Shown: positions 4,765 to 35,931, counted from the first letter of the stretch. The stretch: 64,000 nucleotides of DNA from Candidatus Latescibacterota bacterium (GCA_965208835.1 OZ242358.1:1216001-1280000), one strand, 5' to 3'. The notes: generated by a model not told the origin, from the letters alone. Made by a program: numbers and translations.

Positions 4765-5088
4765 CAGTCCGTTGAGAAAGTCGCTCTGCAGGCGAGGCAT
4801 GGTGTCCCGTCCCGGAAAAATGTCACCATTCATCCGCCGATTCATCCCGTCTGGCGGCGTTGCCTTCGCTCGGCGACCACGGACAGGTCTCCTTGCTCAG
4901 GCGCCTTGCCAGCCGGCCGACTCGGCGGTCGAATTTCGGCAATCTATTTCCGGGACAGAACACTTGCCATTGTGGTTGAAGACAAGGCGCGTGAACGAGT
5001 CCCATCCGTCGATTCGGCGAGGGAGCGCAACGCAGTATTTCGTCCGCCAGGGCCGGCCGCAGCCCGGATGGACTTTTTCAACGGGCTG
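4765..5088. mobile_element. MITE family A copy 1 (IS5/IS1182-like ends) carrying nested MITE B
   Basis: TIRs CAGTCCGTTGAGAAAGTC / GACTTTTTCAACGGGCTG flanked by TTAG direct repeats (4761-4764, 5089-5092); homologous to 15461-15620. Confidence 0.85.
4801..4964. mobile_element. MITE family B copy 1 (IS630-like ends), nested in A1
   Basis: TIRs GTGTCCCGTCCCGGAAA / TTTCCGGGACAGAACAC; reverse-complement homolog of 13666-13831; absent from A copy 2. Confidence 0.85.
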
Positions 5089-5104
5089 TTAGGCCAGAAT
5101 TGCC

Positions 5105-12828: not shown

Positions 12829-13686
12829 ATGGGTGACGTACGGCTCGTGGCGTTCGATCTGGATGGTACGCTGCTCGACGACCGGGGCCGGATGTCAAAC
12901 GAGTCTGTGGAGGCGCTTCGGCGACTGGCGCTCTCCGGCATCGCGATGGCATCGATCAGCGGCCGAAACGTGGGGAAGAGTCTGGCGCCGTTTTCGCCCG
13001 ATCTGAGACCGGCGCTGCACGTGGGAAGTTATAATGGCGCGATGGTGCTGGGAACGGGCGCGGATGACGAACGGCCGTTGTTGCACGAACAACGATTGCC
13101 GGAGGATGGCTTTCCCGGTGTGCTGGACTTCATCGGCGACAGCCGGTTGAATTTCATCTATTGCCGGTGCGAGGCCGACGCTCCCGGTCTCAACGAGGCC
13201 TATCTTACGGACGATGAGACCCGGTGGATCCGATATCTCGTGCGGATGACCGGCGTGAGAATCGTGGTGAAGCCGGATCTGTTGGCCGGGGCGCGGGATT
13301 TCGTGCCGCCGCCGAAGATGATTGTGCTGCCCGGTCCTGAGCGACGGGAAGCGGTGTTCCAGGACATGCGTGCGGCGTTCGGGGGGCAATTCTATCTCGC
13401 CCGCACGGGTGACGACCGGATCGAGATCATGCATCCCGAGGTGAACAAGGCGGTCGCGTTGCGTGAAATCTGCGATGCGTGCGGCGTCGCTCCTTCACAG
13501 TCGCTTGCGATTGGAGACGGGGACAACGATCTGCCGATGCTGAAGGCGGCGGGCATCGGCGTGCTGATGGGAAACGCGGACCGTCTGACCAGGGATTCAG
13601 CCGCCGAGGGGGGCGTGCGGATGTGCGGGTCGCTGGAGCATGAAGGGTTCTCGAAGACCGTGGCGAGTGTTCTGTCCTGGAAATAG
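12829..13686 (+). CDS. Cof-type HAD-IIB hydrolase
   Basis: FDLDGTLL, SGR, NKA and GDGDNDLPML motifs; last codons and stop lie inside MITE B2. Confidence 0.9.
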   Translation: MGDVRLVAFDLDGTLLDDRGRMSNESVEALRRLALSGIAMASISGRNVGKSLAPFSPDLRPALHVGSYNGAMVLGTGADDERPLLHEQRLPEDGFPGVLDFIGDSRLNFIYCRCEADAPGLNEAYLTDDETRWIRYLVRMTGVRIVVKPDLLAGARDFVPPPKMIVLPGPERREAVFQDMRAAFGGQFYLARTGDDRIEIMHPEVNKAVALREICDACGVAPSQSLAIGDGDNDLPMLKAAGIGVLMGNADRLTRDSAAEGGVRMCGSLEHEGFSKTVASVLSWK

Positions 13687-13831
13687 GTTGCCGAAATTCG
13701 GTGGCTGAGTCGCACGGCTGGCAAGGCGCCTGAGCGAGGTGACCTGGGCAAGGTCAGCGAGCGAAGGCAACGAAGCAAGACGGGATGAATCAGCCGAAGA
13801 ATGGTGACATATTTCCGGGACGGGACACCAT
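13666..13831. mobile_element. MITE family B copy 2
   Basis: TIRs GTGTTCTGTCCTGGAAA / TTTCCGGGACGGGACAC; homologous to 4801-4964. Confidence 0.85.
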
Positions 13832-13854
13832 GTACGTGTCGGACGGCTAGCGTT

Positions 13855-14622
13855 TCATTCCGATCGGTTCTCGGAATCACCGTCGATACGCGCCCGAAGG
13901 TCCACGCTGCTGGACAGAATGTGCTCCTCCATGGCCCGCTGCGCGGCTTCGGCGTCGCGTTTCCGGATGGCTCGCACGATTTTTACGTGTTCTTCCACCG
14001 ACATCCGGGCCCGCACCTCCGCCGTATGGGTTGCGGATTCCTCCAGGCTGGCCCCGATCCACTCCTGAAGGTAGTTACGTATCATTACAAGGAGGTTGCG
14101 GAGGATCGAATTCTGGGTTGCCCGGGCAATGGCCAGATGGAACTGCACGTCGAACTCAAGGAATTCGCCGGGCCGGTTCAGAGATGCCTCGATTCCACGG
14201 ATCGTTCGGTCGAATTCCCGGAGGTCGGCTTCCGTGGCGCGCCCGGCGGCAAGGAATGCATTACGTGATTCCAGCATAAGCCGCGTTTCCACGAGGTCCG
14301 TGACTTCCTTCGGATCCAGCAGCAGGCCCCAGCTCAGGGATTTCTCCAGGTATCGGCCAGTATTGTCGCTGACGAACGTACCCTCACCCACCCGGGGTTC
14401 CAGGATGCCCATCACGGAGAGTGTGCGGAGGGCTTCCCTGAGGGAGGTCCTGCCGACCCCGAACTGTTTGCACAGGCTTCGTTCCGGCGGCAGCCGATCG
14501 CCCGGTTTCAGCACGTCCCGGGAGATCAGGTCGATGATCTGGCCGACGATTTCGTCGCTCAGCGACGTGCGCCTGACGGGCGTCATCTGCTCGAGTGCCG
14601 GGGCCTTCGGTTTTCGAGTCAC
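13855..14622 (-). CDS. FadR/GntR family transcriptional regulator
   Basis: LKPGDRLPPERSLCKQFGVGRTSLREAL HTH; FCD domain (FDVQFHLAIARATQN, EEH, MEEHI). Confidence 0.95.
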   Translation of the reverse strand: MTRKPKAPALEQMTPVRRTSLSDEIVGQIIDLISRDVLKPGDRLPPERSLCKQFGVGRTSLREALRTLSVMGILEPRVGEGTFVSDNTGRYLEKSLSWGLLLDPKEVTDLVETRLMLESRNAFLAAGRATEADLREFDRTIRGIEASLNRPGEFLEFDVQFHLAIARATQNSILRNLLVMIRNYLQEWIGASLEESATHTAEVRARMSVEEHVKIVRAIRKRDAEAAQRAMEEHILSSSVDLRARIDGDSENRSE

Positions 14623-14723
14623 GATATCTCAAACCTTTCTTCTTGATGCGCGAATCGCCCGTTCGTCACGCCCGTAAGATTTCGCTTTACAATGACTTCT
14701 TTTTAGGTTACCCTTAAATGCAG

Positions 14724-14738
14724 AATTGGTCTGACCAT
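14724..14738. promoter_or_regulatory. FadR-subfamily operator palindrome AATTGGTCTGACCAT
   Basis: TGGTC-T-GACCA at 14727-14737 matches the LldR/PdhR-type TGGT-N3-ACCA consensus and lies between the GntR gene and the divergent operon. Confidence 0.75.
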
Positions 14739-14806
14739 CATCATAACAGTAAAAGAATAGACGGGGTTCCCCGCTGTCAAGGGAAAACTTGCCGGAGGAT
14801 GGCACA

Positions 14807-15436
14807 ATGGGCCAAACCGTCGATATCGGAACGCGCATCGAACTGGTGCCCATGGATCCGCATTTTCATGAAATCACGATCGGCCTCTACCGGCAGGAGT
14901 ACGACGGGGCTCCCGTGTATTGCGTACATACGTACAGCGGAAGAGCAGGAGCCGACCAACGGATCGCATTCGTCTCCAACGCGATGGTGGTTCTGGGCGG
15001 AATGGCGCAGACACCCGACGGGCTGCTTCGATTTCCGTGCGGAGAAGCCCACGAACTGGCCTGCCGGCGGGTCTTCCTCGAGGCGTGCAAGCTGGATTCC
15101 GGCGGCGAGCTGAAAGCCCGTCCACTGACGATTGTCGACAGGAAGTCCGGATTGAACATCACGGTGTCCCGTGCGGGCAGCGGCGAGTACCGCGTCGAAG
15201 CCGCAGGGGAGGGAAAGGACGGCGCGCGGAGAATCGCGGCAATCGCGGGCGGGTTGGCCAAGCTCGGAGAAATGCAGTCTCGAAGCCCGGATACGGTCGC
15301 ATTTTCGTGCGGACACTACCACGACGCTGTTGTGGGACTGCTTCTGGTTCGGGCCCCGAACGTCCGGGCAGCGGTTCGCGAACAGGAGACGTCGGGTGCC
15401 CGCGGTGTCCTGGCTGCGCCCAGCCAGCAGCGGTAG
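14807..15436 (+). CDS. Hypothetical protein, first gene of the methyl-transfer operon
   Basis: RBS GGAGG, GC3-rich codons; FPCGEAH and FSCGHYHD duplicated Cys/His motifs; no family recognised. Confidence 0.75.
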   Translation: MGQTVDIGTRIELVPMDPHFHEITIGLYRQEYDGAPVYCVHTYSGRAGADQRIAFVSNAMVVLGGMAQTPDGLLRFPCGEAHELACRRVFLEACKLDSGGELKARPLTIVDRKSGLNITVSRAGSGEYRVEAAGEGKDGARRIAAIAGGLAKLGEMQSRSPDTVAFSCGHYHDAVVGLLLVRAPNVRAAVREQETSGARGVLAAPSQQR

Positions 15437-15460
15437 TGCCGGCGCGTAAACGATCTATAA

Positions 15461-15620
15461 CAGCCCGTTGAAAAAGCCCATCCGGGCTACGGCCGGCCCT
15501 TGCGGTCGAAATACTGCGTTGCGCGCTCTCGCCGAATCGCAGGATGGGACTCGGTTGCGCGCCTTGTCTTCGGCCACAATGGCTCGGCCTCGCCTGCAGA
15601 GCGACTTTGTCAACGGACTG
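15461..15620. mobile_element. MITE family A copy 2 (no nested insert)
   Basis: TIRs CAGCCCGTTGAAAAAG / CTTTGTCAACGGACTG; reverse-complement homolog of A1 minus the B insert. Confidence 0.85.
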
Positions 15621-15640
15621 TCAAACAGGAGAGTGAGAAT

Positions 15641-16687
15641 ATGGCGACTCAACCGGTGGGTCCGATGACCGGCCGCGAGCGCGTTCTGGCGGCGCTGAAC
15701 CGGGAGCCGGTGGACCGTACGCCCGTGTGCAATCCGACGTCGGTGGCGACGGTGGAGTTGATGGATCTGGTGGACGCGCCCTTTCCGCAGGCGAACCGCG
15801 ACCCGGAACTGATGGCCCGCCTTGCCGCAACGGGGCATACGGAGCTGGGGTTCGATTCGGTCATGCCGGTGTTCACGATTATACAGGAGTCGTCCGCATT
15901 GGGCTGCAAGATCCAGTGGGAGCAGAAAGACAACTGGCCCACCGTAAGGATGCGCGAGCCCATCTGGGAAGACGTGGACGACATTCAGATTCCACCTGAC
16001 CTGCTCACGCACCAGGATACGAAGTGCGTGCTGGATGCGATCCGGATTCTGAAGAAGGAATACGGAGATGACGTGGCCGTTATCGGCAAGACAATGGGCC
16101 CATGGTCGCTGGGATATCACTGCTTCGGCGTGGAGCCCTTTCTGCTCATGTCTCTGGACGACCCGGACAAGACCAAGGAATGTCTTGACAGAATGAAAGA
16201 CGTGACCGTGGACTTTGGAGTGGCGCAGATCGAGGCGGGCGCGGATGCGCTCACGGTGCCCGATCACGCGACGGGCGACCTGGTGAGCGGGGAATACTAC
16301 AAGCGGTATCTGCGCGACCTGCATATCGAGTTCGTGGAGCGGATCCCGATTCCGCTGATTCTGCACATCTGCGGGCGGACGGTGGACCGGATGGAGTACA
16401 TCGCGCAGACGGGAATGTCCGCATTCCATTACGACTCGAAAAACGAGCCGGGCGAATCCATGGCGGCGGTGAAGGAGCGGATCTCGCTGGTGGGCAACAT
16501 CAATAATCCGGAGACGCTGTTTTCAAAAGGGCCGGAGGCGGTCCGCCAGGAGGTCTTCAGGAACCTGGACGCAGGCGTGCATCTCGTCGGTCCGGAGTGC
16601 GCGATACCGCTGCAGACGTCAATCGAGAACCTGAAGGAGATTCCCGGAGCAGTCCGGGACTGGCACCGGGAGATGCAGGCGGGATAA
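15641..16687 (+). CDS. MtaA/CmuA family corrinoid methyltransferase (URO-D fold)
   Basis: MTGRERVLAAL..EPVDRTPV start, GKTMGPWSL, Zn-binding ILHICG...PECAIP (H-x-C...C), LVGNINN. Confidence 0.88.
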   Translation: MATQPVGPMTGRERVLAALNREPVDRTPVCNPTSVATVELMDLVDAPFPQANRDPELMARLAATGHTELGFDSVMPVFTIIQESSALGCKIQWEQKDNWPTVRMREPIWEDVDDIQIPPDLLTHQDTKCVLDAIRILKKEYGDDVAVIGKTMGPWSLGYHCFGVEPFLLMSLDDPDKTKECLDRMKDVTVDFGVAQIEAGADALTVPDHATGDLVSGEYYKRYLRDLHIEFVERIPIPLILHICGRTVDRMEYIAQTGMSAFHYDSKNEPGESMAAVKERISLVGNINNPETLFSKGPEAVRQEVFRNLDAGVHLVGPECAIPLQTSIENLKEIPGAVRDWHREMQAG

Positions 16688-16702
16688 GGGGGCAGGTGAG
16701 AA

Positions 16703-17473
16703 ATGGCGGAAATCACCGACATCGTAAACGAATTCATCCGCGACGAAATCGAGGAGTTCCTCGAGCGGGAAGACGAACGGGAGCGGGCGATCGCCACGTT
16801 CGCCGAGGTTACTCCCGATATGCAGGCGATTGCCGCGGCCCTGATCGACGGCGACCATCACGAAGTGGACGCGTTGACCAAAGCCGCTCTGGATGCCGGC
16901 ACCGGTGCGCTGGAGGTGATGGACGACGGATTGATCGCGGGAATGGGCATTGTGGGGATCAAATTCCGCGAGAACTTCATCTTCGTTCCGGAAGTGCTGG
17001 CCTGCGCACGTGCGATGAAGGCCGGTATGGCCTATATCGAACCCATTCTGTCCGCGTCGGGCATCGAGCCGATCGGAACGGTAATCATGGGAACTGTAAA
17101 AGGCGACCTGCACGACATCGGAAAGAACCTCTGCATCATGATGCTTCGCGGCGCGGGGTTTGTCGTTCACGATCTGGGGGTGGACACGTCGGAGGACGAA
17201 TTCATGGATGCCGTGGAGGAACACGGCGCACCGCTGCTGGGGATGTCGGCGCTGCTGACGACCACAATGCCCAATATGGGCAAGACGATCGAGGCCTTCA
17301 TCGACGCGGATCTGCGTGAAGACGTGAAGATCATGGTGGGGGGCGCGCCCGTTACGCAGGAATTCGCCGACGATATGGGCGCGGACGGGTACGGCAAAGA
17401 CGCGATGGCGTGCGTGACCCTGGCCAAAGACCTGCTCGACGAGATGAAGGCAGAGACCAACCTGAATGTGTGA
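16703..17473 (+). CDS. Corrinoid (cobalamin-binding) protein
   Basis: Cap domain GLIAGMGIVGIKF..NFIFVPEVL and B12 motif GTVKGDLHDIGKN...MSALLTTT...VGGAPVT. Confidence 0.95.
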   Translation: MAEITDIVNEFIRDEIEEFLEREDERERAIATFAEVTPDMQAIAAALIDGDHHEVDALTKAALDAGTGALEVMDDGLIAGMGIVGIKFRENFIFVPEVLACARAMKAGMAYIEPILSASGIEPIGTVIMGTVKGDLHDIGKNLCIMMLRGAGFVVHDLGVDTSEDEFMDAVEEHGAPLLGMSALLTTTMPNMGKTIEAFIDADLREDVKIMVGGAPVTQEFADDMGADGYGKDAMACVTLAKDLLDEMKAETNLNV

Positions 17474-17476
17474 GCC

Positions 17477-17674
17477 TAACCTCGATTCGTACGGTTTCGT
17501 GGACGTTAAATCGAATTCATGCAAATTGATAGCGGCGATTAAACTGCGGATTACCAGGATACACCAGGGCACTGGACGTGAACGGAAACAATGTCCCTCC
17601 GGACGACCTTTTCGCCCCGTTTCGGTAGGCTTCGTCGCGTTACCGCGTTGCCGTTTTTTTCGAATTGAGGCTTA
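17477..17674. mobile_element. MITE family C copy 1
   Basis: TIRs TAACCTCGATTCG / CGAATTGAGGCTTA; ~198 bp; homologous to 22411-22606 and 56248-56564. Confidence 0.85.
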
Positions 17675-17676
17675 CC

Positions 17677-17952
17677 GTGCAGAAGATTGACAAAGAGGAA
17701 TATCAGAAGCGTCTGGACAGGATCACGGAACTGTTCGCCGGAATGATCGCCCATGCCGATGAACTTTCAACCGTCCGGTGCCCCTACAAGAACCGTTTCG
17801 ACGAGTGTACCGCCAGGTTCGGCTGCAGAAATCAGCGGAGGCCGCGTCCGGGCGGAACGCTGCTGATGTGCGGTGGAGACGACAAGCTGGACTACCGCGG
17901 CGCGTGGGAAACGGAGACAGAACTTGGCGCATTCGTCGGGAGCGACGAATAG
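17677..17952 (+). CDS. Small Cys-rich hypothetical protein
   Basis: GTG start; RCPYKNRFDECTARFGCRN...MCGGDD (4 Cys); 5 bp before the ASKHA gene. Confidence 0.7.
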   Translation: MQKIDKEEYQKRLDRITELFAGMIAHADELSTVRCPYKNRFDECTARFGCRNQRRPRPGGTLLMCGGDDKLDYRGAWETETELGAFVGSDE

Positions 17953-17957
17953 TACGC

Positions 17958-19580
17958 ATGGGTACCATATCTCACGACGGAAAGCGGAGGGCCCTGACAG
18001 CCGGAAAGACGGTTTTCGACTATGCGGATGAGCTGGCGGTCCAGGTGCCCACTTCCTGCGGACGCACCGGACACTGTCACGAGTGCGTGGTTGAAATCGG
18101 GTGCGGGATGGAAGCATTGCGGCCACGGAACGACGTGGAGTCGTTCCTGCGGGAGAATTACCGTCTGGCTTGTCTGGCGGTGGTTGAAAACGACGAAGCC
18201 GATATCGAGTTCTCGCCGTTGAGGCGCAAGCCCAAGATTCTCTCACATTCCCTGGAAAGACCGCTGGATCCGGACCCCCTGGTCACGCGCCTGGGGGACG
18301 TTGTTTATTATGACGGCGTCGCCGTCGACAGGTATCGCGGTCACCTTTACGGAATCGCGGTCGATCTGGGCACGACGACGGTGGTCATGGACCTGGTGGA
18401 TCTGGCCACGGGCGAGAGCGTCCACGTGAGTTCGTTCGAGAACCCGCAGCGTTTCGGCGGCAGCGACGTGATGAATCGCATTTCCTACGACGGGGAGTTT
18501 CACGGCGAACTTCAGAAGGCGGCCGTAAACGCGATCAATCACGAAATCCTGGAACTGGGAAGACGATTCGGGTTTGTCCGCCAGGAGATCTACGAGATCG
18601 TCGTGGCGGGAAACTCCACGATGCGGGACATCTTCTTCAAGCTGGACGTTCAGAGCATCGGCCAGAGACCGTACAAATCCCGCGTGGAGCACGCCTGTCT
18701 GGAGGGCGAACGGGAGACGACTTCCCTGCTGGAGGGTTCCAGGCGGCTGGGGCTGCGCGTCAATCCCAGGGCGAGGGTCTACGGGATGCCGCTGATCGCC
18801 AGCCATGTGGGGGCCGATACCGCGGCGGACCTCGTGGCGACGGACCTGACGTCTCAGGATGGCGTGGTGATGCTGGTGGACGTGGGGACCAATACCGAGG
18901 TGGTGGTGCGAAGCCCCGACCGGCTGCTCACCGCCTCCTGCCCGGCGGGGCCCGCGTTCGAGGGCGGGCTGGTCCGGTACGGGATGCCCGGACATGAAGG
19001 CGCTATCGAGTCGATCCGTCTCGAAAACGGCGGGTTCCAATACCGGACCATCGGAAACGTCGAGCCGGAGGGAATGTGCGGGTCCGGGTTGATCGATCTG
19101 CTGGCGGAACTCCGGCGGCACGATCTCATGGCGCCCAAAGGGATGTTTGCCGACCGGTCCTTTGAAATCCCGGTTGTCCCGGATTACGGGATCACGCTGT
19201 CCCGCGAAGACGCCAGCAACCTTGCCCAGGCCAAGGCCGCGAATTTCTGCGGACAGTTCATCCTGATGCGACACCTCGGGGTTGGGCCTGAAGATATCGA
19301 CACGCTATACCTTGCCGGAGGTTTCGCGAATTACGTGAACGTCCGGAACGCGGTCGAGATCGGATTTCTGGCGCCGGTCGAAGAAGAACGCGTGGTTAAG
19401 ACGGGAAATGCGGCGGTCCAGGGGGCGCGGGAGGTCCTGCTGTCGCGCGGGAAACGGGCGTCCGTCGAGGCGCTGGTGAAAGAGATCGAACACGTCGAAC
19501 TCGAAACGACTCCGGACTTCTTCGAGGTGTTCGTGGAAGGCTGCCAGTTCAAGCCGATGCCCTTTTCAAAAGCCGGGTAG
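17958..19580 (+). CDS. ASKHA/RACE ATP-dependent reductive activator of corrinoid proteins (RamA/RACo-like) with N-terminal 2Fe-2S domain
   Basis: SCGRTGHCHEC...RLAC ferredoxin; AVDLGTTT, NPQRFGGSDVMNRI, VDVGTNTE, AGPAFEG, GMCGSG, YLAGGF, GNAA motifs. Confidence 0.93.
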   Translation: MGTISHDGKRRALTAGKTVFDYADELAVQVPTSCGRTGHCHECVVEIGCGMEALRPRNDVESFLRENYRLACLAVVENDEADIEFSPLRRKPKILSHSLERPLDPDPLVTRLGDVVYYDGVAVDRYRGHLYGIAVDLGTTTVVMDLVDLATGESVHVSSFENPQRFGGSDVMNRISYDGEFHGELQKAAVNAINHEILELGRRFGFVRQEIYEIVVAGNSTMRDIFFKLDVQSIGQRPYKSRVEHACLEGERETTSLLEGSRRLGLRVNPRARVYGMPLIASHVGADTAADLVATDLTSQDGVVMLVDVGTNTEVVVRSPDRLLTASCPAGPAFEGGLVRYGMPGHEGAIESIRLENGGFQYRTIGNVEPEGMCGSGLIDLLAELRRHDLMAPKGMFADRSFEIPVVPDYGITLSREDASNLAQAKAANFCGQFILMRHLGVGPEDIDTLYLAGGFANYVNVRNAVEIGFLAPVEEERVVKTGNAAVQGAREVLLSRGKRASVEALVKEIEHVELETTPDFFEVFVEGCQFKPMPFSKAG

Positions 19581-19703
19581 ACGCAAGACGTAAGACGGGA
19601 GAAGAAATCCTCGCCGGGTATGTTATACCTTCTTGCCTCCGGCATGAGAGGAAGCCTTTCAAGGCAGGTCATCTCTACCCTCTTCCGTCTCCCGTCTTAC
19701 CGC
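19573..19703. mobile_element. Repeat family D copy 1
   Basis: ~130 bp; reverse-complement homolog of 56382-56511 and 27941-28070; ends CGGGTAGACG / CGTCTTACCGC. Confidence 0.8.
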
Positions 19704-19754
19704 TTCTAAGGGGCCGTGTGGCAAGGTCCCCCGCAAAAACACGAGTGAGTTCGC

Positions 19755-21356
19755 ATGGCGGCAACTTTAGGAAAGTCAGATCCAGCCGGCGTCGATGGGC
19801 AGAGACAGTCCCTGCGCCATTTGCTCGAGGAAACGGACGCGTTCGTCGTCTGCGTGGAACTGGTCAATTCCCGGGGCGTGATCACCGAACGCCGCGGGCG
19901 ACGCGTCCTCGACCTCGCGCGGGCGCTGGCCGACCACCCCGGCGTACACGCACTGAGCATCACGGACAATCCCGGCGGGAACGCCACAAACAGCCCGGAC
20001 GCGATGGGAATGGACCTGCTGGGCCGGGGCAAGGAAGTCATCATTCACCTGTCGTGCAAGGACTGGAACCGGAATGCGCTGCTCAGCCGGGGCTGGGAGC
20101 TGGCAAGCGAAGGATTCGAAAACGTGCTTGCGCTCTCCGGCGACTACCCCGCAACCGGATATCACGGGCAGGCGGGCGCCGTGTTCGATACGGATTCGGT
20201 CGGCCTCCTGAAGATGCTCTCAGAGATGAATTCAGGCATGCGGCTCGAAGGCGTCAGAGGCGATCAGGTCCTGAAGCCTACACGTTTCTTCCTCGGCGCG
20301 GTGGTAAACAACCACAAGCGATACGAACGCGAGGTGATGCCGCAGTACTTCAAGCTGGAAAAAAAGATCCGGAACGGCGCGGAGTTCATCATCAACCAGA
20401 TCGGGTACGACACCCGCAAGCAGCACGAACTGTTGAAGTACATGGCCCGTTGCGGCCTCCGCACACCGGCGATTGCAAACGTGTACGTGCTGAGCCCCGC
20501 CTCGGCCAGGTTCTTCCACGGAGGAAATATCCCCGGCGTGATCGTAACCGACGAGTTGCTTGAACTCACGGCGAAGCACGCCCGCTCCCGCGACAAGGGC
20601 AAGGCTTTCTTTCTGGAGTTCGCCGCGAAGCAGTGCGCAATAGCCCGGGGGTTGGGGTACCGCGGGGTGTACCTTGGGGGGCACCTGAAGTTCGAGGACT
20701 ATGCGCGGATCCTGGACATCTGCGGCGGCTACGGAGACGCGGACTGGAAAGACTTCGCTTCCGAGATTTGCTTCCAGCAGCCGGAAGAGTTCTTCTTTTT
20801 TGAACCAGACAGGGAAACGGGGCTGAGTTCGGACGAGGTCAACCGCGCGTATCGTCATTCGAAGCAACCCGAGGTGTTGCGGGCGGCCAGAAGCCGCGTA
20901 TCCACGGCCTACAAGATCAACCGCTTCGTGCACGAACAGGTCTTCGAGAAGGATCGTCCGGCCTTTCGCATCGGCAGAAGGTTCTTCGAGGCCGTCGACC
21001 GCGCCGGAAGCAGGGTGCGCAGGGCTTTGCACGGCGCCGAGCAGGCGGTGAAGATTCCGTGCTTCGATTGCCGGGACTGCGGCGATTGTTCGCTTCCGGA
21101 TATCGCGTTCCTCTGTCCCGAGTCGCAGTGCGTCAAGAATCAGCGAAACGGCCCCTGCGGCGGGACCCGCCGGGGACTGTGCGAAGTGGGGGACAAGGAA
21201 TGTATCTGGTCGCTGGCCTACGAACGCCTCAAGGCGTACGGCGAGGAAGAGACGATGCTGGACGGGCCGGTGGTCTTCAGAAACGGCGCCCTCAAAGGCA
21301 CCAGCGCCTGGGCGAACGCGTTTCTGGACCGGGACCACCACGCGCGCAAGGAGTGA
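19755..21356 (+). CDS. metF: Methylenetetrahydrofolate reductase with fused C-terminal MetV-like Cys-rich domain
   Basis: SITDNPGG, IHLSCKDWNR, LALSGD, KKIRNGAEFIINQIGYD; C-terminal CRDCGDC...CPESQC.K..RNGPCGG...CEV...CIW. Confidence 0.85.
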   Translation: MAATLGKSDPAGVDGQRQSLRHLLEETDAFVVCVELVNSRGVITERRGRRVLDLARALADHPGVHALSITDNPGGNATNSPDAMGMDLLGRGKEVIIHLSCKDWNRNALLSRGWELASEGFENVLALSGDYPATGYHGQAGAVFDTDSVGLLKMLSEMNSGMRLEGVRGDQVLKPTRFFLGAVVNNHKRYEREVMPQYFKLEKKIRNGAEFIINQIGYDTRKQHELLKYMARCGLRTPAIANVYVLSPASARFFHGGNIPGVIVTDELLELTAKHARSRDKGKAFFLEFAAKQCAIARGLGYRGVYLGGHLKFEDYARILDICGGYGDADWKDFASEICFQQPEEFFFFEPDRETGLSSDEVNRAYRHSKQPEVLRAARSRVSTAYKINRFVHEQVFEKDRPAFRIGRRFFEAVDRAGSRVRRALHGAEQAVKIPCFDCRDCGDCSLPDIAFLCPESQCVKNQRNGPCGGTRRGLCEVGDKECIWSLAYERLKAYGEEETMLDGPVVFRNGALKGTSAWANAFLDRDHHARKE

Positions 21357-21366
21357 GGGGAATACA

Positions 21367-22413
21367 ATGAAACTGGATGGACGGGACGGCGAGTTTATCG
21401 TCATCGGTGAAAACATCCACACGACACGGATTGTCCTGAGAAAGGGACGACTCGTCGTGAAGAACCCCGATGGGTTGGAGGCGGTCCGCTATTACGACAC
21501 CCGCAAGAAGCGGCGCTTCCTGACGATTCCCGACGATTTCAAGCGGACGCAGGACTATGAAGAAGGGCGCGTCAAGTACGTCAAGATCGCGGTGCAGGCG
21601 GCGATGTCCGGCCTCGCGCCACAGGCGGAAGACGGGCAGGCGTACCTGCACCGGATGATTCAGCGCCAGGTGGAAGCGGGAGCGGACTACCTGGATCTGA
21701 ACGTGGACGAGGTCTCACTGCGACTGGACGAACAGAAGAAGGCCATGCGATGGCTGGTGGGCGCCGTTCAGGAGGTAAGCCCCGTTCCGATATCCGTTGA
21801 CTCCTCCAATGTGGAGACCATTGGAGAAGGACTCGGGGCCTGCAACGGCGGGACTGGACGGCCGCTGCTGAACTCGGCCTCGCTGGAACGCCTGGAGGCG
21901 CTGGACCTGGCCTTGAGGTTCAACGCCAGGGTTGTCGTGACGGCCGCCGGCGAGAGCGGAATGCCCCAGGACGCGGAGGAGCGGGTCGAGAACGCGTCGC
22001 GGATGGTGGACGCGGCGCTGTCGAGAGGGATCGCGATCGAGGATATTTTCGTGGATGCCCTGGTCTTTCCGATATCGGTGGACGGCGGTTTCGGCAACCA
22101 TTGCTTCGAGGCCATTCGCAGGCTTCGAGCGGGATTCGGCCCAGGGATTCACGTCACGGGCGGATTCAGCAACGTTTCGTTCGGGCTGCCGTGCCGGCGC
22201 CTGATCAACGACGTGTTCACGATTCTGGCCGTCGAGGCCGGAGCCGACAGCGGGATCGTCGACCCGGTCACCAGCAGCCCGCAGCGTATATTCACCCTGG
22301 ACCGGGATACGGAACCGTACCGGCTCGCGGAAGACATGCTTCTGGGCAGGGATCGCATGTGCAAGGCCTTTCTGCGTGCGTATCGGAAGGGTGCGCTGGA
22401 CGCTTACCGTTAA
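21367..22413 (+). CDS. Pterin-binding methyltetrahydrofolate:corrinoid methyltransferase (AcsE / MetH pterin domain)
   Basis: IVIGENIH, GADYLDLNVD, PISVDSS, LLNS, IFVDALVFP, GGFSNVSFGLP motifs. Confidence 0.9.
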   Translation: MKLDGRDGEFIVIGENIHTTRIVLRKGRLVVKNPDGLEAVRYYDTRKKRRFLTIPDDFKRTQDYEEGRVKYVKIAVQAAMSGLAPQAEDGQAYLHRMIQRQVEAGADYLDLNVDEVSLRLDEQKKAMRWLVGAVQEVSPVPISVDSSNVETIGEGLGACNGGTGRPLLNSASLERLEALDLALRFNARVVVTAAGESGMPQDAEERVENASRMVDAALSRGIAIEDIFVDALVFPISVDGGFGNHCFEAIRRLRAGFGPGIHVTGGFSNVSFGLPCRRLINDVFTILAVEAGADSGIVDPVTSSPQRIFTLDRDTEPYRLAEDMLLGRDRMCKAFLRAYRKGALDAYR

Positions 22414-22606
22414 CCTTGATTCGTAAGTTTTCGCGGACGTTAATTCGAATAAGTGCAAGTTAATAAAGGCGATTAGAAGGCTGATTACCGGGATAAACCA
22501 GGTCACTGGACGTGAACGGAAGAAATGCCCTTCCGGACGACGTTTGCTCCCCGTTTCGGAGGGCTTTATCACGACGCCCGGTCGCTGTTTTTTCGAATTG
22601 GGGTTA
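22411..22606. mobile_element. MITE family C copy 2
   Basis: TIRs TAACCTTGATTCG / CGAATTGGGGTTA; its first TAA is the stop codon of the upstream gene. Confidence 0.85.
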
Positions 22607-22633
22607 ATTCATTGAGGAGGAATCGGGGAGGAG

Positions 22634-23713
22634 ATGAAGACATTTCTCGATCGGATGGAAGACGCCCGGCCTATGGTTTACGACGGGGGATTCGGTTCGG
22701 AGTTGTTCAAGGGGCGCATCGAACTGACGAACAGCGCGCTCGCGAATGAACTGCATCCCGCTGCAGTGGTCGATATCCATGCCGCCTATATTGAAGCGGG
22801 GACCGACGTCATCGGCACGAACACATTCGTGGCTTCGCCACTGCACCTGGAAATGGCTGGGAAAGCCGCGAACGACGCCGGAAAGATTGCCAGGCTGGCT
22901 GTGGAACACGCGAAAACGGCGGTCGAAGTGAGCGAAAGGGAGGTCTATATCGCGGGGTCCGTCGGACCGTCTCCCGGGGCTATCGAGTCGGACGCGGGCG
23001 ATACCGACTTCGGCATCGCGGACGTGAAGGTAAGGGATGCGCACGAGCAGGTCATCCACGCGCTCGCGCAGGCCGGGGTGGACCTGATCTGCATCGAGAC
23101 CATGTTTTCCGCAAAGGAGGCCGCCATTGCGGCTGACGTGGCCCGGAAGACCGGATTGCCCGTCGCGATCAACCTCACGTGCAAGTACACGAAGGACCGG
23201 AAAACCGGCGAGGTGATCTACCGGACGGACTGGGGGCATTCGCCGGGCGATCTTCTGGATTTCCTCGGTTCCGGCGAGTTTTCGGACGGTGACAATCTGC
23301 TGGAGCACGTAGGGATCGTCGGGATGAATTGCGGAGCGGAGACCCGGCGGGTGGAACATACGGGGATGGCTTACGCGATCAACGGAATCCGGCAGTTCAG
23401 AGACGCAATGGTGTCGCGGGGCGTCGAGGGGATCGGGCTGATGGCCTATCCCAACGCGGGGCTTCCGCAGCTGGAGCGAAAGACTGGACGGACGACGTAT
23501 TCTCAGACCGCCGCGGACATGGTGCAGTCCGTGCCCGAGTTGATTGACAGCGGCGCCGCCATCATCGGAGGCTGTTGCGGGACCGGACCGTCGCACATTC
23601 GGGCGTTCCACGGCGTGATGAACGGGGGTCAGGGAAAGACAGGGAGCGGCGGCAGGGGTCCCGGCATACACATCCGGCAAGACGATGGGAACGGCCGCGG
23701 GAAGAAGGGGTGA
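22634..23713 (+). CDS. Homocysteine S-methyltransferase domain protein (split MetH Hcy module)
   Basis: YDGGFGS, HAAYIEAG.D.IGTNTF, AGSVGP, CIETM, GMNCG, YPNAGLP, IIGGCCGTGPSHI (all three Zn cysteines). Confidence 0.93.
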   Translation: MKTFLDRMEDARPMVYDGGFGSELFKGRIELTNSALANELHPAAVVDIHAAYIEAGTDVIGTNTFVASPLHLEMAGKAANDAGKIARLAVEHAKTAVEVSEREVYIAGSVGPSPGAIESDAGDTDFGIADVKVRDAHEQVIHALAQAGVDLICIETMFSAKEAAIAADVARKTGLPVAINLTCKYTKDRKTGEVIYRTDWGHSPGDLLDFLGSGEFSDGDNLLEHVGIVGMNCGAETRRVEHTGMAYAINGIRQFRDAMVSRGVEGIGLMAYPNAGLPQLERKTGRTTYSQTAADMVQSVPELIDSGAAIIGGCCGTGPSHIRAFHGVMNGGQGKTGSGGRGPGIHIRQDDGNGRGKKG

Positions 23714-23716
23714 ACG

Positions 23717-23989
23717 GTGGCCGAATACCAGGTGTTGTACTGGAAGGACATTCCCGCGCAGGTGCGGGTCTTCGACGGAAAGCGTCGCGTCGCCCGGCAG
23801 ATGCCCCCGGAATTCCAGGAGGCGATAGACCGGCGGGCGATGGCGGAGGGCCTGGCCGGAACGGACGCGTACCTGGCGCACTGGCACTGGAGCGAGCGGC
23901 GGGATCGTCCGGGCGACCCGCAGGCGGTCCTGCTGGCCGTTTCAGAAGAGCTTGAACGGACTTACGACGATCAGGGCGGTGAGGTATAA
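23717..23989 (+). CDS. 'Virulence factor' (Virulence_fact-like) small protein
   Basis: YQVLYWKDIPAQV...FQEAIDRRAM..G..GTDAYLAHW signature; this family is usually found next to metF/split metH genes. Confidence 0.75.
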   Translation: MAEYQVLYWKDIPAQVRVFDGKRRVARQMPPEFQEAIDRRAMAEGLAGTDAYLAHWHWSERRDRPGDPQAVLLAVSEELERTYDDQGGEV

Positions 23990-24013
23990 AGGAACAACCC
24001 CAGGGTTGGCATT

Positions 24014-24049
24014 AAAAGAAGGGAGCCGGATTTTCCGGCTCCCTTTTTT
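24014..24049. terminator. Bidirectional rho-independent terminator
   Basis: AAAAGAAGGGAGCCGGA-TTT-TCCGGCTCCCTTTTTT between convergent operons. Confidence 0.9.
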
Positions 24050-24074
24050 GTCTTCGACAGTGCGCGACAACGCC

Positions 24075-25658
24075 CTACAACACCCCTGCCCCCTGAACAG
24101 GAGACGCGACGGTGAGTCTTTCCTGGATCCCGCGCGGCCGGTAGTACCGCGCCCGCATGGCTTCGATGATTCCCTTGACGCCTCCTGACTCCACGAGGAC
24201 CATCATGCTGCCTCCCAGGCCGGCGCCGGAAATCTGCGCGCCCACCGCTCCCGCATCAATTGCAAGGTCGACCATCTCGTCGATTTCGGGGATGCTGCAG
24301 TTGTAGTCGCCCGGCTGGAGGTGCAGGTCATTCGTCGGGTCGAATCGGGGCGCGTCCAGGTCGATGCGGTCGCCGTCGTGGGAGACGTTCATCAGTTGCC
24401 CGTACAGGTCCACGCGGTTCCTGTTGAGTACGTCCTTGAGATTTCTGCTTCGCGCGGATTCGGCGATGCCGTAGGCGATGACCATGCGAATCTCGTAGCC
24501 GCCGGCCGGTTCATCGTGGGTGGCGAACTGCTGTTTGAGAAATGCTTCCTGGTCCGGTAGCTGGCGCAGGAGCTCACGCCGGTCGATCCGTTCCGGCAGG
24601 GATTGTATCAGCGCGTAGATCTCTGGTTGGTCGAGACATTCGATAACGTCGCCGAGGTGGAACTTTTTCTCGATATCCAGATCCTTCCTGGACGCCACTA
24701 CGCACCGGATCGCATCGGAGTGGTGCGTTTCGAGATAGCTTCGGAGATAGACCTCTCCGATTTCATACGTCGCCGTCTTTTCGTTGAATTTCTGCCCCGC
24801 GCCGCCGGTTTTGTTCGCCTGTATGCCGGAGTCGAAGATGATGATCTGGTATCCGTCAGGGAACGGAAGATAGGCGTCGATCATCAATTCCGGGAGCGTC
24901 TTCATGTGGGTGATTCTTCCGAGTTGCCCGCACTTGATCGCAGCGTGGTCGCCGAATCCACCGCGCGTTCCCACGTACCACTCCGCGGTGCCCGCGTACC
25001 TCACGAACTGCCCGTCGTCCAGGTCGATATCGTTGATGCAAGTCATGATTTCGGTGGTCGCGACGATGACCGCGGACGAAGAGCTCAGTCCGCCCATGTC
25101 GGGAAGGCTGCTGCCCATCACCCCGTCAAAGCCCCTGAGTTGACTTTCGGGATAGCGGGTATGGAGGTAGGCCGGCGGCGCCTGAAGCTTGGTCACCCAG
25201 TCTTCGTTCACGCCCGCCGACTTGCGTTCGTCGGTCTTTTGCTGCGTCCATTCCAGCCACTCGGCGTCAGAACGGATTGGCGCGTCCGGACAAATATCGC
25301 ACATGTGGAAGCTGCGGGTTCCGTAGACGGGATCCAGATTGCGCACTTCCACGCGGTCGTCGTCTCTGCGGGAGAAACAGATGAGAATCTCTTTGTCGAG
25401 GGAGATGGGGTTGATGAAGGCGCCGCGGTGGTCGGCGTGCATGCCCACCGTGTTCAGCCTGCCCGGCGCCCTGACGAAACTGACGTCCCTCTCGCCGAAG
25501 GCCTCGCTGAATCGCATGGCGGTTTCCAGGAGCGCGTCGAGACGCTCTTCAATCAGGCTTTCATTGCTGCCGTAGATGGACTCCAGCCGCGAGATCAGTT
25601 CACGGCTGCGACTCCGAATCGCCTGGATCCAATGATGCGTGTTCTTCTGGCCAATCAT
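24075..25658 (-). CDS. GHMP-family sugar kinase (galactokinase/GalNAc kinase-like)
   Basis: RAPGRLN..G.HADH.G, PDMGGLSSSSA, AEWYVGTRGGFGDH, MNVSH, GAQISGAGLGG. Confidence 0.85.
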   Translation of the reverse strand: MIGQKNTHHWIQAIRSRSRELISRLESIYGSNESLIEERLDALLETAMRFSEAFGERDVSFVRAPGRLNTVGMHADHRGAFINPISLDKEILICFSRRDDDRVEVRNLDPVYGTRSFHMCDICPDAPIRSDAEWLEWTQQKTDERKSAGVNEDWVTKLQAPPAYLHTRYPESQLRGFDGVMGSSLPDMGGLSSSSAVIVATTEIMTCINDIDLDDGQFVRYAGTAEWYVGTRGGFGDHAAIKCGQLGRITHMKTLPELMIDAYLPFPDGYQIIIFDSGIQANKTGGAGQKFNEKTATYEIGEVYLRSYLETHHSDAIRCVVASRKDLDIEKKFHLGDVIECLDQPEIYALIQSLPERIDRRELLRQLPDQEAFLKQQFATHDEPAGGYEIRMVIAYGIAESARSRNLKDVLNRNRVDLYGQLMNVSHDGDRIDLDAPRFDPTNDLHLQPGDYNCSIPEIDEMVDLAIDAGAVGAQISGAGLGGSMMVLVESGGVKGIIEAMRARYYRPRGIQERLTVASPVQGAGVL

Positions 25659-27877: not shown

Positions 27878-27940
27878 GCCAAAACATATTGCGGAACGGT
27901 TGCGCGGGTGTTATCGTTAGTCGAAAGCAAAACCTTAAGA

Positions 27941-28070
27941 GCGGGAAGACGTGAGAGGGGAGAGGGTAGAGATCGCATGCCGAAAAGGGGTTCTCTTTAT
28001 GTCGCAGGCAAGACGGAGGAACATATCGGCAAGGGCATCTTCTCCCGGCTCACCTCTACCGTCTACCCGC
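27941..28070. mobile_element. Repeat family D copy 2 with trailing heptamer repeats
   Basis: GCGGGAAGACG...CCGTCTACCCGC, followed by CCGTCTCA/CGTCTCG/CATCTCA units to ~28104. Confidence 0.75.
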
Positions 28071-28176
28071 ATTTCTTCTACCGTCTCACGTCTCGCATCT
28101 CACTGCATCGCGTAAAGGACACGGGAATGGGAGACTTTATGGTTGTCGGGAGATTCTAAACGGAAAAGGAGTAACA

Positions 28177-34417: not shown

Positions 34418-34713
34418 TTTTATTTTCGTTAATTTATGTTGATAAACGATAAAGTGAAATCTTGAACCAGACAAGTGTGGAATATCCTGACGCAGTATCG
34501 CCCAATTGGCTTGGCTGGTACGGTTGCGCGACCGCCTTTCCAATTCAGAAGCAGTATTGTAGACGGATCAGATTCCCGGCGACACGGCAGAACGACACTG
34601 GATCAATGTCAGAATTCTGCTCAATACCTGTTGCGACGCAAAGATCACCGGATCTCCGTATTCGACGAAACATCCGAGACGGTGATGTCTTTAGCCCAAA
34701 GGAGGATGCTCCC

Positions 34714-35931
34714 GTGTTATCAATAAAGAACGCCTCGTTAATCGCCGTTCTATGTCTGTTGATTACTTCAGGAATCGCGACGGCCGGTCCGAACGCGGAC
34801 GCGGTTCTGTCGCTCGACCTGATCGCCGATGGCGGTGCGGGCAATCAGAGGGACGACGGCGCGACGACCGGTGTTGTTTCGGGACAGGGCACAACCGTTG
34901 CAGCCGAAGTCTTCGCCAGAGGTGTGAGGACTTCGCTTAGGGGTATAATCATCAAGTTCAACTTTGATGCTTCGCTAATTGCCTTTATCGGAGCAGAAAA
35001 CAGTGCGTTTGCACTTTCGGTTCCGGAAGCGTCCGTCGGCGTGAACCTCGCCGCCACGTCGCCGGTGACATTACCGCCTTCCGGATTCCTGGCGCGTGCC
35101 GAGTTTGAAACGGTCGCTGACGTAACGGGCCGAGAGTTCTCCATTGGCATAGAAACGGTTACGCTTGCAGAAAACGTGACGTCGCAGGACGAACTCAAGA
35201 CAACAGCTACGATTATGTTCAATTCCACGCCGTCTCCGGACTTCGACGGTGACGGCACGGTAGGATTCTCAGACTTTGTGCTTTTCGCACGCAATTTCGG
35301 AACACAGGTCGGAGACGCAACATATGATGCGCGATTCGACCTGGATGTCGACGGCTCAGTTGGTTTTTCAGACTTTGTTGTATTCGCCCGCCAATTTGGA
35401 CAGTTCGTGGTTCGCGACAACCAACAGCCCGTGACCGTTGGCGCCATTGCCGCGCAGACCCTGACGGCGGGTGGTGATGACGCGACCGTGGATCTGTCGG
35501 ACAGCTTCAGTGATCCCGACGATGACCCATTGAAGTATTCGGCGAGTTCCAGTGATACCTCGGTGGCGGCGGTGTTGGTTACAGACAACATGCTGACGAT
35601 TGCGCCGAAGGAGGCCGGGAGCGCAACGGTGACCGTCACGGCGACCGACCCCGGTGGCTCGAGTGTCGAGCAGACGATTGATGTGACCGTGAGGGAATCC
35701 GGAGGCGGTGGCGCGAGCCAGAGGTGTACGGCGGGGCTGATGTTGAGACCGGGGGACAGTTGCCAGGGGTCCGGTTACAGCTTTCGCAACGAGGCGGGCG
35801 TTCTCATCGGACAGGGCAGCGTAGGTGGCATCTCGATAGACAATGCCCGATTCGGGGGCGGCAGCGTGCGATTAAACCAGCTGCACCTGACCAAAAGCGG
35901 CAATGTCTGGACGATTGTCAGCCTGCCATGA
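34714..35931 (+). CDS. Secreted protein: cohesin-like domain + dockerin/EF-hand-like pair + cadherin-like Ig domain + Cys C-terminal module
   Basis: GTG 34714 after AAGGAGG; signal peptide; PDFDGDGTVGFSDF...FDLDVDGSVGFSDF; NQQPVTVGAI..FSDPDDDPLKY..VTATDPGG; ends NVWTIVSLP. Confidence 0.8.
   Translation: MLSIKNASLIAVLCLLITSGIATAGPNADAVLSLDLIADGGAGNQRDDGATTGVVSGQGTTVAAEVFARGVRTSLRGIIIKFNFDASLIAFIGAENSAFALSVPEASVGVNLAATSPVTLPPSGFLARAEFETVADVTGREFSIGIETVTLAENVTSQDELKTTATIMFNSTPSPDFDGDGTVGFSDFVLFARNFGTQVGDATYDARFDLDVDGSVGFSDFVVFARQFGQFVVRDNQQPVTVGAIAAQTLTAGGDDATVDLSDSFSDPDDDPLKYSASSSDTSVAAVLVTDNMLTIAPKEAGSATVTVTATDPGGSSVEQTIDVTVRESGGGGASQRCTAGLMLRPGDSCQGSGYSFRNEAGVLIGQGSVGGISIDNARFGGGSVRLNQLHLTKSGNVWTIVSLP

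Follow-up and report, generated by a model that had tools for sequence, protein, structure and literature searches.

We analyzed a 64,000-nucleotide (nt) stretch of the genome of a Candidatus Latescibacterota bacterium (GCA_965208835.1 OZ242358.1:1216001-1280000), called the window here, in which the region under study, positions 13855-23989, comprises an operon of nine genes and the divergent gene of a GntR-type regulator. We propose, with a probability of about 0.45, that the operon encodes a demethylase-type corrinoid methyl-transfer system that is repressed by the GntR protein and feeds tetrahydrofolate (H4folate) and, in this lineage, homocysteine. The joint presence of a UroD-type methyltransferase, a corrinoid protein, a pterin-binding methyltransferase, a RACo-type activase and a MetF paralogue argues for this reading, as do the conservation of the regulator with its putative operator and the lack of a riboswitch. 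Within the proposal, we infer the direction of methyl flow, the class of the substrate, the effector and the service of one corrinoid protein to all three methyltransferases.

The family models used were those of Pfam, NCBIfam and Rfam, the last applied at gathering score and, over 13600-24300, also at a permissive E ≤ 1. Related loci were collected by a scan of one genome per species, which yielded 543 confirmed loci; the best 80 of the 543 (L001 to L080) were analyzed. Their gene content was determined by tblastn of the window proteins against all 80 loci, counting matches that cover at least half of the query, and the absence of a homocysteine methyltransferase or other gene from a relative refers to its 21-kb locus, not to its whole genome. 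Published systems are cited from those parts of the papers that were available, and statements resting on them extend as far as those parts do.

Organization and conservation of the operon

Nine intact open reading frames (ORFs), all on the plus strand, span 14807-23989, in agreement with an earlier sequence-only reading of this region, and every module listed in that reading was found by Pfam or NCBIfam. Pfam matches lie far above cut-off for seven of the nine genes; the two genes that match no Pfam family (14807-15436 and 17665-17952) are kept across phyla. The start chosen then, 13855, coincides with the end of the GntR/FCD gene, which is divergent, lies on the minus strand and is not among the nine. 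As for the extent of the operon, described as running from an operator to a strong terminator, both a palindrome (14727-14737) and a hairpin are present, the latter 30 nt past the end proposed at that time. The hairpin (24019-24045; 12 pairs, 8 of them GC) is a two-way terminator common to the operon and a convergent GHMP-kinase gene; the terminator scan itself placed it on the minus strand, and the T-run on the plus strand was read from the sequence. No Rfam family, riboswitches included, reached its gathering score across the window, and the permissive scan gave just two partial CsrC matches, both on the terminator hairpin. The claim that the operon has no Met, SAM or B12 riboswitch was thus borne out. 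A sigma-70 promoter scan returned one site, on the wrong strand and with a score no better than those of shuffled sequences.

The 80 loci come from metagenome-assembled genomes (MAGs) labelled Candidatus Latescibacterota, Candidatus Poribacteria, Gemmatimonadota and Acidobacteriota (including Versatilivoraceae), and the window is nearest to Latescibacterota (97% to L001). This survey, suggested by the sequence-only reading, showed that the cluster does recur across phyla and that its core is a pair of genes. The first gene of the operon (14807-15436, plus strand), overlooked in that reading, encodes a 209-amino-acid protein of no known family, named unk209 here, and is the invariant partner of the MtaA-like methyltransferase gene: in 79 of 80 loci, it lies upstream of that gene and shares its strand. 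Locus L075 ends 338 nt before the gene, and in L079 the two genes are about 8 kb apart. The corrinoid protein gene comes next in 32 loci, and the genes for a small four-cysteine protein (Cys4) and the RACo-like activase come next in 31 (locus L018 ends early). In 31 loci, which fall under four phylum labels, the five genes for unk209, the MtaA-like enzyme, the corrinoid protein, Cys4 and RACo stand side by side. The GntR gene is divergent beside unk209 in 30 of the 80 loci, all of which also hold the corrinoid and RACo genes. Counts are lower for the remaining genes: 29 for the MetF-like gene, 25 for the pterin methyltransferase, 23 for the PF13769 gene and 15 for the homocysteine methyltransferase. 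Five loci (L029, L030, L035, L051 and L070) have the order GntR, unk209, MtaA-like, corrinoid protein, Cys4, RACo, MetF-like, pterin methyltransferase, PF13769, and no homocysteine methyltransferase within the 21 kb. In several loci, unrelated genes lie between the RACo block and the MetF block.

These uneven counts show that the cluster has three layers, namely, the invariant pair; a corrinoid and activase block with the regulator; and a folate block, joined in some lineages, including that of the window, by the homocysteine methyltransferase. The earlier description as a split methionine synthase (MetH) with an input module therefore put the weight in the wrong place, as no part is less constant than the homocysteine methyltransferase, which is present in 15 of 80 loci and absent from five otherwise complete ones. 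Identity to the window proteins in the related loci is 81 to 97% for the MtaA-like protein, 73 to 98% for the corrinoid protein, 61 to 95% for the pterin methyltransferase and 56 to 94% for the homocysteine methyltransferase. A protein search by word index with the MtaA-like query found 3734 relatives at E ≤ 0.001, and the 120 matches listed are all 83 to 100% identical.

The zinc methyltransferase and its likely substrate class

The MtaA-like gene (15641-16687, plus strand) encodes a protein of the URO-D fold (PF01208, E 1.2e-67; 228.9 bits, cut-off 23.9). It passes the models TIGR01463 (255 versus 235.4 bits) and PRK06252 (266.7 versus 244), and it fails the equivalog models for MtaA (NF040654, 245.7 versus 400) and MtbA (NF041608, 204.4 versus 600); its placement in the MtaA/CmuA family rests on these NCBIfam scores in place of a tree with characterized enzymes. 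The best relative in the PDB is 4ay7 (E 1.4e-53; about 31% identity, counted on the HMMER midline), with whose equivalents the HICG and PECA motifs (H-x-C and C) align. Residues H242, C244 and C320 are invariant in 39 MtaA-like sequences under four phylum labels, with a mean column identity of 88%. The kept His-x-Cys...Cys ligands and the pass of TIGR01463 make the enzyme a probable MtaA/CmuA-type zinc methyltransferase, as had been claimed. A tree of the MtaA-like sequences groups them by phylum label (four changes versus a minimum of three), which argues that the high identity reflects constraint and not an obvious recent transfer. Recent horizontal transfer is not needed to explain it and was rejected as its cause.

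In the UroD superfamily, a His-Cys-Cys site marks S- and Se-methyltransferases, and O-demethylases replace Cys, according to the available part of PMC10418091. By this rule, the heteroatom of the substrate would be soft. In a demethylase, the methyl donor would most likely be an S- or Se-methyl compound, a methyl halide being less likely.

Dehalogenation of a methyl halide (CH3Cl, CH3Br or CH3I) by a split analogue of the cmu system is an improbable function for the operon. The MtaA-like protein and unk209 would then guide the halomethane to Co(I), and the methyl group would pass on to H4folate and MetF. In keeping with this, TIGR01463 is a joint MtaA/CmuA model; the parts of the operon parallel CmuA, the folate methyltransferase CmuB and MetF (PMC3621897, available part), a parallel from which the sequence-only reading had started; and a UroD-fold enzyme, CdmB, is reported to be specific for halomethanes (PMC13222342). 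However, CmuA is a fusion and two genes are found here, and CdmB has no zinc in the available account (PMC13222342), as opposed to the invariant zinc ligands of the MtaA-like proteins. A tblastn search of 72,556 plasmid records found no cmuA and nothing above 27% identity, the matches being mostly hemE. In addition, the effector of a GntR/FCD regulator would be expected to be an organic acid, not a halomethane.

Corrinoid, activase and folate proteins

The third gene (16703-17473, plus strand) encodes a stand-alone corrinoid protein with a B12 cap and a Rossmann domain (PF02607, 1e-20; PF02310, 6.6e-27), whose translation shows DLHDIG, SAL and GG motifs, which we take to be the canonical B12-binding motifs. 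It is separate from the methyltransferase ORF (stop codon at 16685-16687) here and in all 32 loci that hold a corrinoid gene. Its matches in the PDB are 1y80 (207 bits), MttC (142) and 4jgi (106), with MetH at 95 bits or less. The pterin-binding methyl-H4folate:corrinoid methyltransferase (21367-22413, plus strand; PF00809, 1.6e-23), of the methyltransferase II (MT II) type, scores 203.9 bits against PRK07535, whose cut-off is 259. In the PDB it matches 4o0q, presumably the MT II of a Desulfitobacterium O-demethylase, with 133 bits, AcsE-type proteins with 90 to 100 and MetH with at most 75. By these scores, the two proteins resemble demethylase components more than MetH, and the emphasis on a split MetH is not upheld in this respect either.

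The activase gene (17958-19580, plus strand) encodes a RACo/RamA-like, ATP-dependent reductive activase with an N-terminal 2Fe-2S domain (PF14574, 3.4e-64; PF17651, 5.4e-41; PF00111, 1e-06). Its Pfam domains are Fer2, Raco_middle and RACo_C_ter, and its best PDB match is RACo itself (3zyy, E 1.2e-73). Upstream of it lies the Cys4 gene (17665-17952, plus strand, although the GTG at 17677 may be the true start), which encodes a mini-protein of 95 amino acids with the pattern C-x8-C-x5-C...C and no Pfam or NCBIfam match. The four Cys are invariant in 16 sequences. In L013-L017, L019-L024 and L027, which are Poribacteria and one Gemmatimonadota MAG, Cys4 and RACo form one ORF (e.g., L013:11948-13846), and in all Latescibacterota-type loci they are two ORFs in different frames. 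Because the split is kept in all of the latter, it is not a sequencing error, and the fusion elsewhere indicates that Cys4 serves the activase as an accessory domain, encoded separately here. The AlphaFold2 (AF2) model of Cys4 is poor, with a predicted local distance difference test (pLDDT) score of 58.5, too low for a fold search.

The gene that follows (19755-21356, plus strand) encodes a divergent methylene-H4folate reductase (MTHFR) with a MetV-type C-terminal domain (PF02219, 1.6e-10; PF12225, 2.5e-24; i.e., MTHFR plus DUF5981) that has no sequence relative in the PDB at E ≤ 0.001. Fusion of MTHFR to a MetV-type domain is typical of anaerobes. Beyond the pterin methyltransferase gene come those for a homocysteine S-methyltransferase domain protein (22634-23713, plus strand; PF02574, 1.2e-52) and a small PF13769 protein (23717-23989, plus strand; 4.3e-21). 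The former contains NCG and GGCCG motifs, presumably its zinc ligands, and in the PDB it matches the N-terminal domains of MetH best (E 4e-18). The PF13769 gene, where present (23 loci), always accompanies the MetF and pterin methyltransferase genes, directly after the latter where the homocysteine gene is absent. A full-text literature search found no mention of the PF13769 accession. The name Virulence factor (Virulence_fact) given by Pfam probably misleads, and the protein may have its place in methyl-folate and corrinoid chemistry.

The partner protein unk209

The start of unk209 was placed from 38 orthologues. The protein matches no Pfam or NCBIfam model and has no usable neighbor in a protein-language-model atlas, and its relatives in the protein collection carry just the name "hypothetical protein." Among 1.84 billion cluster representatives, searched exhaustively with a profile, 277 belong to the family at E ≤ 0.001, nearly all of about 210 amino acids or fragments. 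Pfam was run on 10 of the more distant or longer members, nine of which gave no match. One member, P0202 (345 amino acids), in which an N-terminal piece of URO-D comes after the first approximately 150 residues of unk209, may be a rare fusion or a read-through or frameshifted gene call. The AF2 model of unk209 is confident save for the last 20 residues (pLDDT 86, predicted template modeling score 0.82). Foldseek found no match to it in the PDB at E ≤ 0.001 (best E 0.05, TM score at most 0.23), and the best match of the family profile to PDB sequences, ribosomal S7 at E 0.079, was taken as chance. The disordered C-terminal tail ends in a nearly invariant RGVLxAPSQQ.

Structure prediction supports binding of unk209 to the MtaA-like protein. 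The predicted complex scored 0.82, compared with 0.23 for the best of three controls; of the complexes of solved structure, 58 of 80 attain the mark for such scores, as do 2 of 110 mismatched pairs, counts that are approximate here because one of the three runs scored 0.00 and our own alignments were used. At least 9% of contacts are common to the runs, and the partner's pLDDT is at least 74. Fold and sequence searches of the PDB found no similar complex among solved structures, and the predicted contact is therefore unlikely to be a memorized one. In the model, unk209 would make contact through its N-terminal strands, through residues 42-46 and, in the tail, through residues 197-203, and the MtaA-like protein through segments 38-47, 95-101, 289-298 and 320-332, including the zinc ligand C320. 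Invariant residues are enriched in the MtaA-side interface, with 26 of 31 versus 195 of 348 overall (hypergeometric P = 6.5e-4).

We put forward, as a tentative and somewhat doubtful extension of the proposal, that unk209 represents a new class of obligatory partner subunit of zinc/corrinoid methyltransferases, and that the two-protein methyltransferase I (MT I) that it would form with the unusually conserved MtaA-like barrel lets aerobic or microaerobic bacteria under four phylum labels demethylate a host- or diet-derived organosulfur or organoselenium compound to which corrinoid chemistry has so far not been linked, the methyl group going to the folate one-carbon (C1) pool and to methionine. 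It is very improbable that unk209 is instead a protein substrate, methylated on C94, or a regulator that caps the zinc site against the corrinoid protein. Such a role would fit the modeled position of the interface on the zinc-site face, with C320 in it, the invariance of C94 in 39 sequences, and the occurrence of the pair without a nearby corrinoid protein in 48 of 80 loci. However, the interface residues listed do not include C94, the Acidobacteriota/Versatilivoraceae members have lost C78 and C168, and strict 1:1 pairing on the same strand would be more typical of subunits.

The GntR-type regulator and its putative operator

The divergent gene (13855-14622, minus strand) encodes a GntR/FCD protein (PF00392, 2.2e-19; PF07729, 1.7e-25) that stays under the cut-off of every NCBIfam equivalog, the best being NanR, LldR and PdhR. 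A palindromic operator with a GT-N-AC core typifies the FadR subfamily, and the winged helix, the FCD domain and a nearby palindrome suggest that the protein belongs there, the operator being putative. The palindrome, TGGTCTGACCA, has a GTC-N-GAC core and lies at 14727-14737 in the 184-nt spacer between the GntR and unk209 genes. It is the sole exact match in the window; by itself it is not above chance, as a search allowing one mismatch gives 2 matches in the window versus 2.24 expected.

Its conservation is more telling. An exact TGGTCNGACCA is present in L001-L012. It precedes the unk209 ATG by 80 nt in the window as well as in L001-L009, even though the length of the spacer ranges from 133 to 1214 nt, and by 81, 109 and 225 nt in L010-L012. 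Poribacteria with the full cluster have the variant aGGTCAGACCA, and Acidobacteriota/Versatilivoraceae have GGTTGTCAGACAACC, in which the GTC-N-GAC core is kept. The observation that the palindrome is conserved at a near-fixed distance, with variants per phylum, indicates that the regulator and its putative operator co-evolve with the operon. Control by a GntR gene and operator, part of the sequence-only reading, thus gains in strength, since gene and palindrome travel with the cluster across phyla.

Proposed scheme and direction of methyl transfer

In the scheme that we favor, the GntR/FCD protein would repress the operon at the GTC-N-GAC operator until a small-molecule effector arrives. The MtaA-like barrel would act together with unk209 as MT I and transfer a methyl group from a soft-heteroatom donor to the Co(I) of the corrinoid protein. 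The pterin methyltransferase, as MT II, would pass it from the corrinoid to H4folate, and the MetF-MetV-like enzyme would oxidize the methyl-H4folate into the C1 pool. The same methyl-corrinoid would also supply the homocysteine methyltransferase of this lineage for the synthesis of methionine. RACo, with its Cys4 domain, would rescue oxidized Co(II) at the expense of ATP and electrons.

A number of observations weigh against this demethylase scheme. The nearest named relatives of the MtaA-like protein are archaeal MtaA and MtbA, in which transfer goes from the corrinoid to a thiol. No transporter or downstream catabolic gene that would point to a substrate is found among the cluster genes. 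In 48 of the 80 loci, no corrinoid, activase or GntR gene lies within 10 kb of the unk209-MtaA pair; these pair-only loci (within L026-L080, e.g., L034:6774-11032) form one well-supported Poribacteria clade. As to unk209, one of the three complex runs scored 0.00, the calibration of the score is approximate, as stated above, and the interface residues on its side are not enriched in conserved positions (12 of 26 versus 77 of 209, P = 0.2). Moreover, the predicted interface covers the zinc-site face, where the corrinoid protein would be expected to dock, and unk209 could compete with the corrinoid protein rather than help it. Last, MetF, the pterin methyltransferase, the corrinoid protein, the homocysteine methyltransferase and RACo make up a full split MetH with its methyl-folate supply, as far as the available part of PMC5764234 describes one, and a biosynthetic operon is equally compatible with these genes.

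In such a biosynthetic operon, the main alternative although a rather unlikely one overall, MetF-MetV would produce methyl-H4folate, from which the pterin methyltransferase would charge the corrinoid protein. The homocysteine methyltransferase would then make methionine, and the MtaA-like protein with unk209 would methylate a second thiol or selenol. This second acceptor would be a small metabolite, or else sulfide, selenide or methanethiol, for detoxification or formation of a thioether, and the MtaA-like enzyme would be an output, as in methanogens. The families and the structure nearest to the MtaA-like protein are consistent with this: PRK06252 (266.7 bits) and MtaA_Meth (245.7 bits) are methylcobamide:coenzyme M methyltransferase families, and 4ay7 is the best structure. 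A His-Cys-Cys site suits the activation of a thiolate, and in vitro, with methylcobalamin as the methyl source, a bacterial Mlp2 was able to methylate selenide (both from the available part of PMC10418091); all pieces of a three-part MetH (PMC5764234) are present together with the RamA-like activase. On the other hand, a FadR-type repressor and the lack of a SAM, Met or B12 riboswitch would be unusual for methionine synthesis, although this is weak evidence in the case of these phyla. The locus lacks the homocysteine methyltransferase in five complete-looking clusters, the corrinoid protein and pterin methyltransferase are of demethylase type, and the Pfam scans of the window show no genes for biosynthesis of a thiol cofactor nearby.

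If the extension to a two-protein MT I with unk209 as its subunit is correct too, the operon would represent a new regulated demethylation pathway of ecological weight in sponge holobionts. The system is a candidate route by which abundant uncultured symbionts use methylated sulfur, selenium or halogen compounds, with a bearing on their need for cobalamin. The enzyme also seems to include a member of a small protein family with no relative in Pfam, NCBIfam or the PDB (277 of 1.84 billion representatives). The inducer could be approached through the conserved operator and regulator, and the substrate through the inducer.

Other features of the window

Most gaps between the genes of the operon are occupied by dispersed repeats of 100 to 330 nt, which belong to three families and have copies at other places in the window too. 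Family A lies between the corrinoid and Cys4 genes (17477-17659), between the pterin and homocysteine methyltransferase genes (22411-22593) and at 56248-56354. Family B is found at 4765-5091 and, as inverted copies of that stretch, at 13661-13832 and in the unk209-MtaA gap (15458-15620), a gap that is often just 10 to 47 nt in related loci. Family C lies in the RACo-MetF gap (19574-19729), at 56356-56510 and at 27933-28073. Copies are also present in the nearest Latescibacterota loci (L001-L003, L005-L007 and L009). Family A ends in a T-run and, folded as RNA, showed no significant structure (z = 0.71). In sequence, the repeats look like MITE- or REP-type elements.

In the pair-only Poribacteria loci, genes for a PQQ_2 beta-propeller and a beta-lactamase-like protein precede the pair in 45 to 47 of 48 cases. 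The proteins have hydrophobic, signal-like N termini and are probably exported, and they were dropped as a hint to the substrate.

Outside the operon, the window encodes a core MetE-like protein of 333 amino acids (54003-55004, minus strand) that consists of the catalytic Meth_synt_2 domain alone and scores 157 bits against PRK04326, whose cut-off is 406. Core methionine synthases have been proposed to take methyl groups from corrinoid proteins (PMC7857596, available part), and this protein could be a further outlet of a methyl-corrinoid pool.

Large repeat proteins are encoded at 34462-46335 and 49226-53950, with leucine-rich repeats (LRR; 36178-38679), CARDB (40871-43597), fibronectin III domains (44035-46335) and a 1574-amino-acid NHL/FG-GAP/ASPIC protein. 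Several of their genes share near-identical DNA modules, N-terminal (36229-36502 versus 40925-41198) and C-terminal (35701-35931 versus 46105-46335), and may thus encode related secreted or surface proteins that have their sorting segments in common. Latescibacterota, Poribacteria, Acidobacteriota and Gemmatimonadota are phyla typical of sponge microbiomes, and the host bacterium is likely sponge associated. The giant LRR, fibronectin-III, CARDB and NHL/FG-GAP proteins fit this picture.

Comparison with known systems

Literature searches, including those of the sponge-symbiont literature, found no description of the cluster or of unk209, and a gene-for-gene match to a characterized pathway, which would have spoken against novelty, was not found among the cmu, MtgBCDE and type-1 mlp systems.

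The closest parallel in logic is MtgBCDE of marine Alphaproteobacteria, reported in 2025, in which substrate demethylation and methionine synthesis draw on one corrinoid protein, and MetF2 accompanies MtgBCD (PMC12478193, available part). A corrinoid hub of this kind was shown genetically in Ruegeria in the same work, and the shared hub, inferred in the sequence-only reading, is therefore not new. The input module and its partner are. Like MtgBCDE and the three-part MetH of Ruegeria pomeroyi and Phaeobacter inhibens (PMC12478193, PMC5764234), the operon has a separate corrinoid protein, pterin methyltransferase, homocysteine methyltransferase, ferredoxin-RACo activase and MetF paralogue. The hallmarks of a split MetH are indeed present, with PF02574, PF00809 and PF02607 plus PF02310 on separate proteins (22634-23713, 21367-22413 and 16703-17473) and a ferredoxin plus DUF4445/RACo activase (17958-19580). 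DUF1638 (PF07796), needed in the split MetH of Phaeobacter, has no match among the ORFs of the cluster and window scanned with Pfam, a statement that holds for the window. Unlike in Ruegeria and Phaeobacter, the genes here form one regulated operon and occur in other phyla. The input also differs: MtgB, of the MttB superfamily (PF06253), acts on glycine betaine, whereas the candidate input here is a UroD-fold zinc enzyme with unk209. No window ORF scanned with Pfam matches PF06253 (MttB/MtgB), and membership in the MtgBCDE systems was rejected on this ground. Corrinoid methyltransferase systems outside anaerobes were recognized recently, with MtgBCDE in 2025, and with the present cluster the same logic would be found in other phyla and with a different input chemistry, a His-Cys-Cys zinc site.

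The cmu system shares with the operon the logic of a zinc methyltransferase, a corrinoid, an H4folate methyltransferase and MetF, as well as the NCBIfam subfamily model TIGR01463. Membership was rejected because CmuA fuses the methyltransferase and corrinoid domains, which are two genes here. To our knowledge, the cmu cluster has no RACo-type activase gene, and one is present here. Type-1 mlp clusters, for which S- or Se-methyl metabolism is likewise proposed (Kountz and Balskus preprint, PMC10418091), have at least one Mlp2 and one Mlp3, typically lack an H4folate methyltransferase and occur in obligate anaerobes, according to the available part of that source. This membership was rejected too, as the cluster has one URO-D gene together with a folate methyltransferase and MetF. 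The methanogen enzymes MtaA, MtbA, MtsA and MtpA have the same fold and zinc ligands as the MtaA-like protein, and MtsA and MtpA are reported to move methyl groups from thioethers to cobalamin as well (10.1101/548461, available part). Unlike these coenzyme M methyltransferases, the present enzyme has a bacterial host, no sign of coenzyme M metabolism in the window, and a pairing with unk209.

The O-demethylase and Cdm systems consist of a UroD-superfamily MT I, a corrinoid protein, a pterin MT II and a RACo-type activase (PMC13222342, available part). As in these four-component demethylases (Odm, Vdm and Mtv; CdmBCA), MT I, corrinoid protein, MT II and activating enzyme are encoded together here. 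Unlike theirs, the MT I of the operon keeps His-Cys-Cys and scores as MtaA/CmuA, not as an O-demethylase; unk209, Cys4, MetF-MetV, the homocysteine methyltransferase and PF13769 are added; and the hosts are not known anaerobes. By family scores, then, the enzyme belongs at its own level to the MtaA/CmuA subfamily, and the system appears to be of the four-component demethylase kind. Its new elements are the partner protein unk209, the Cys4 add-on to the activase and the make-up of the operon in these phyla.

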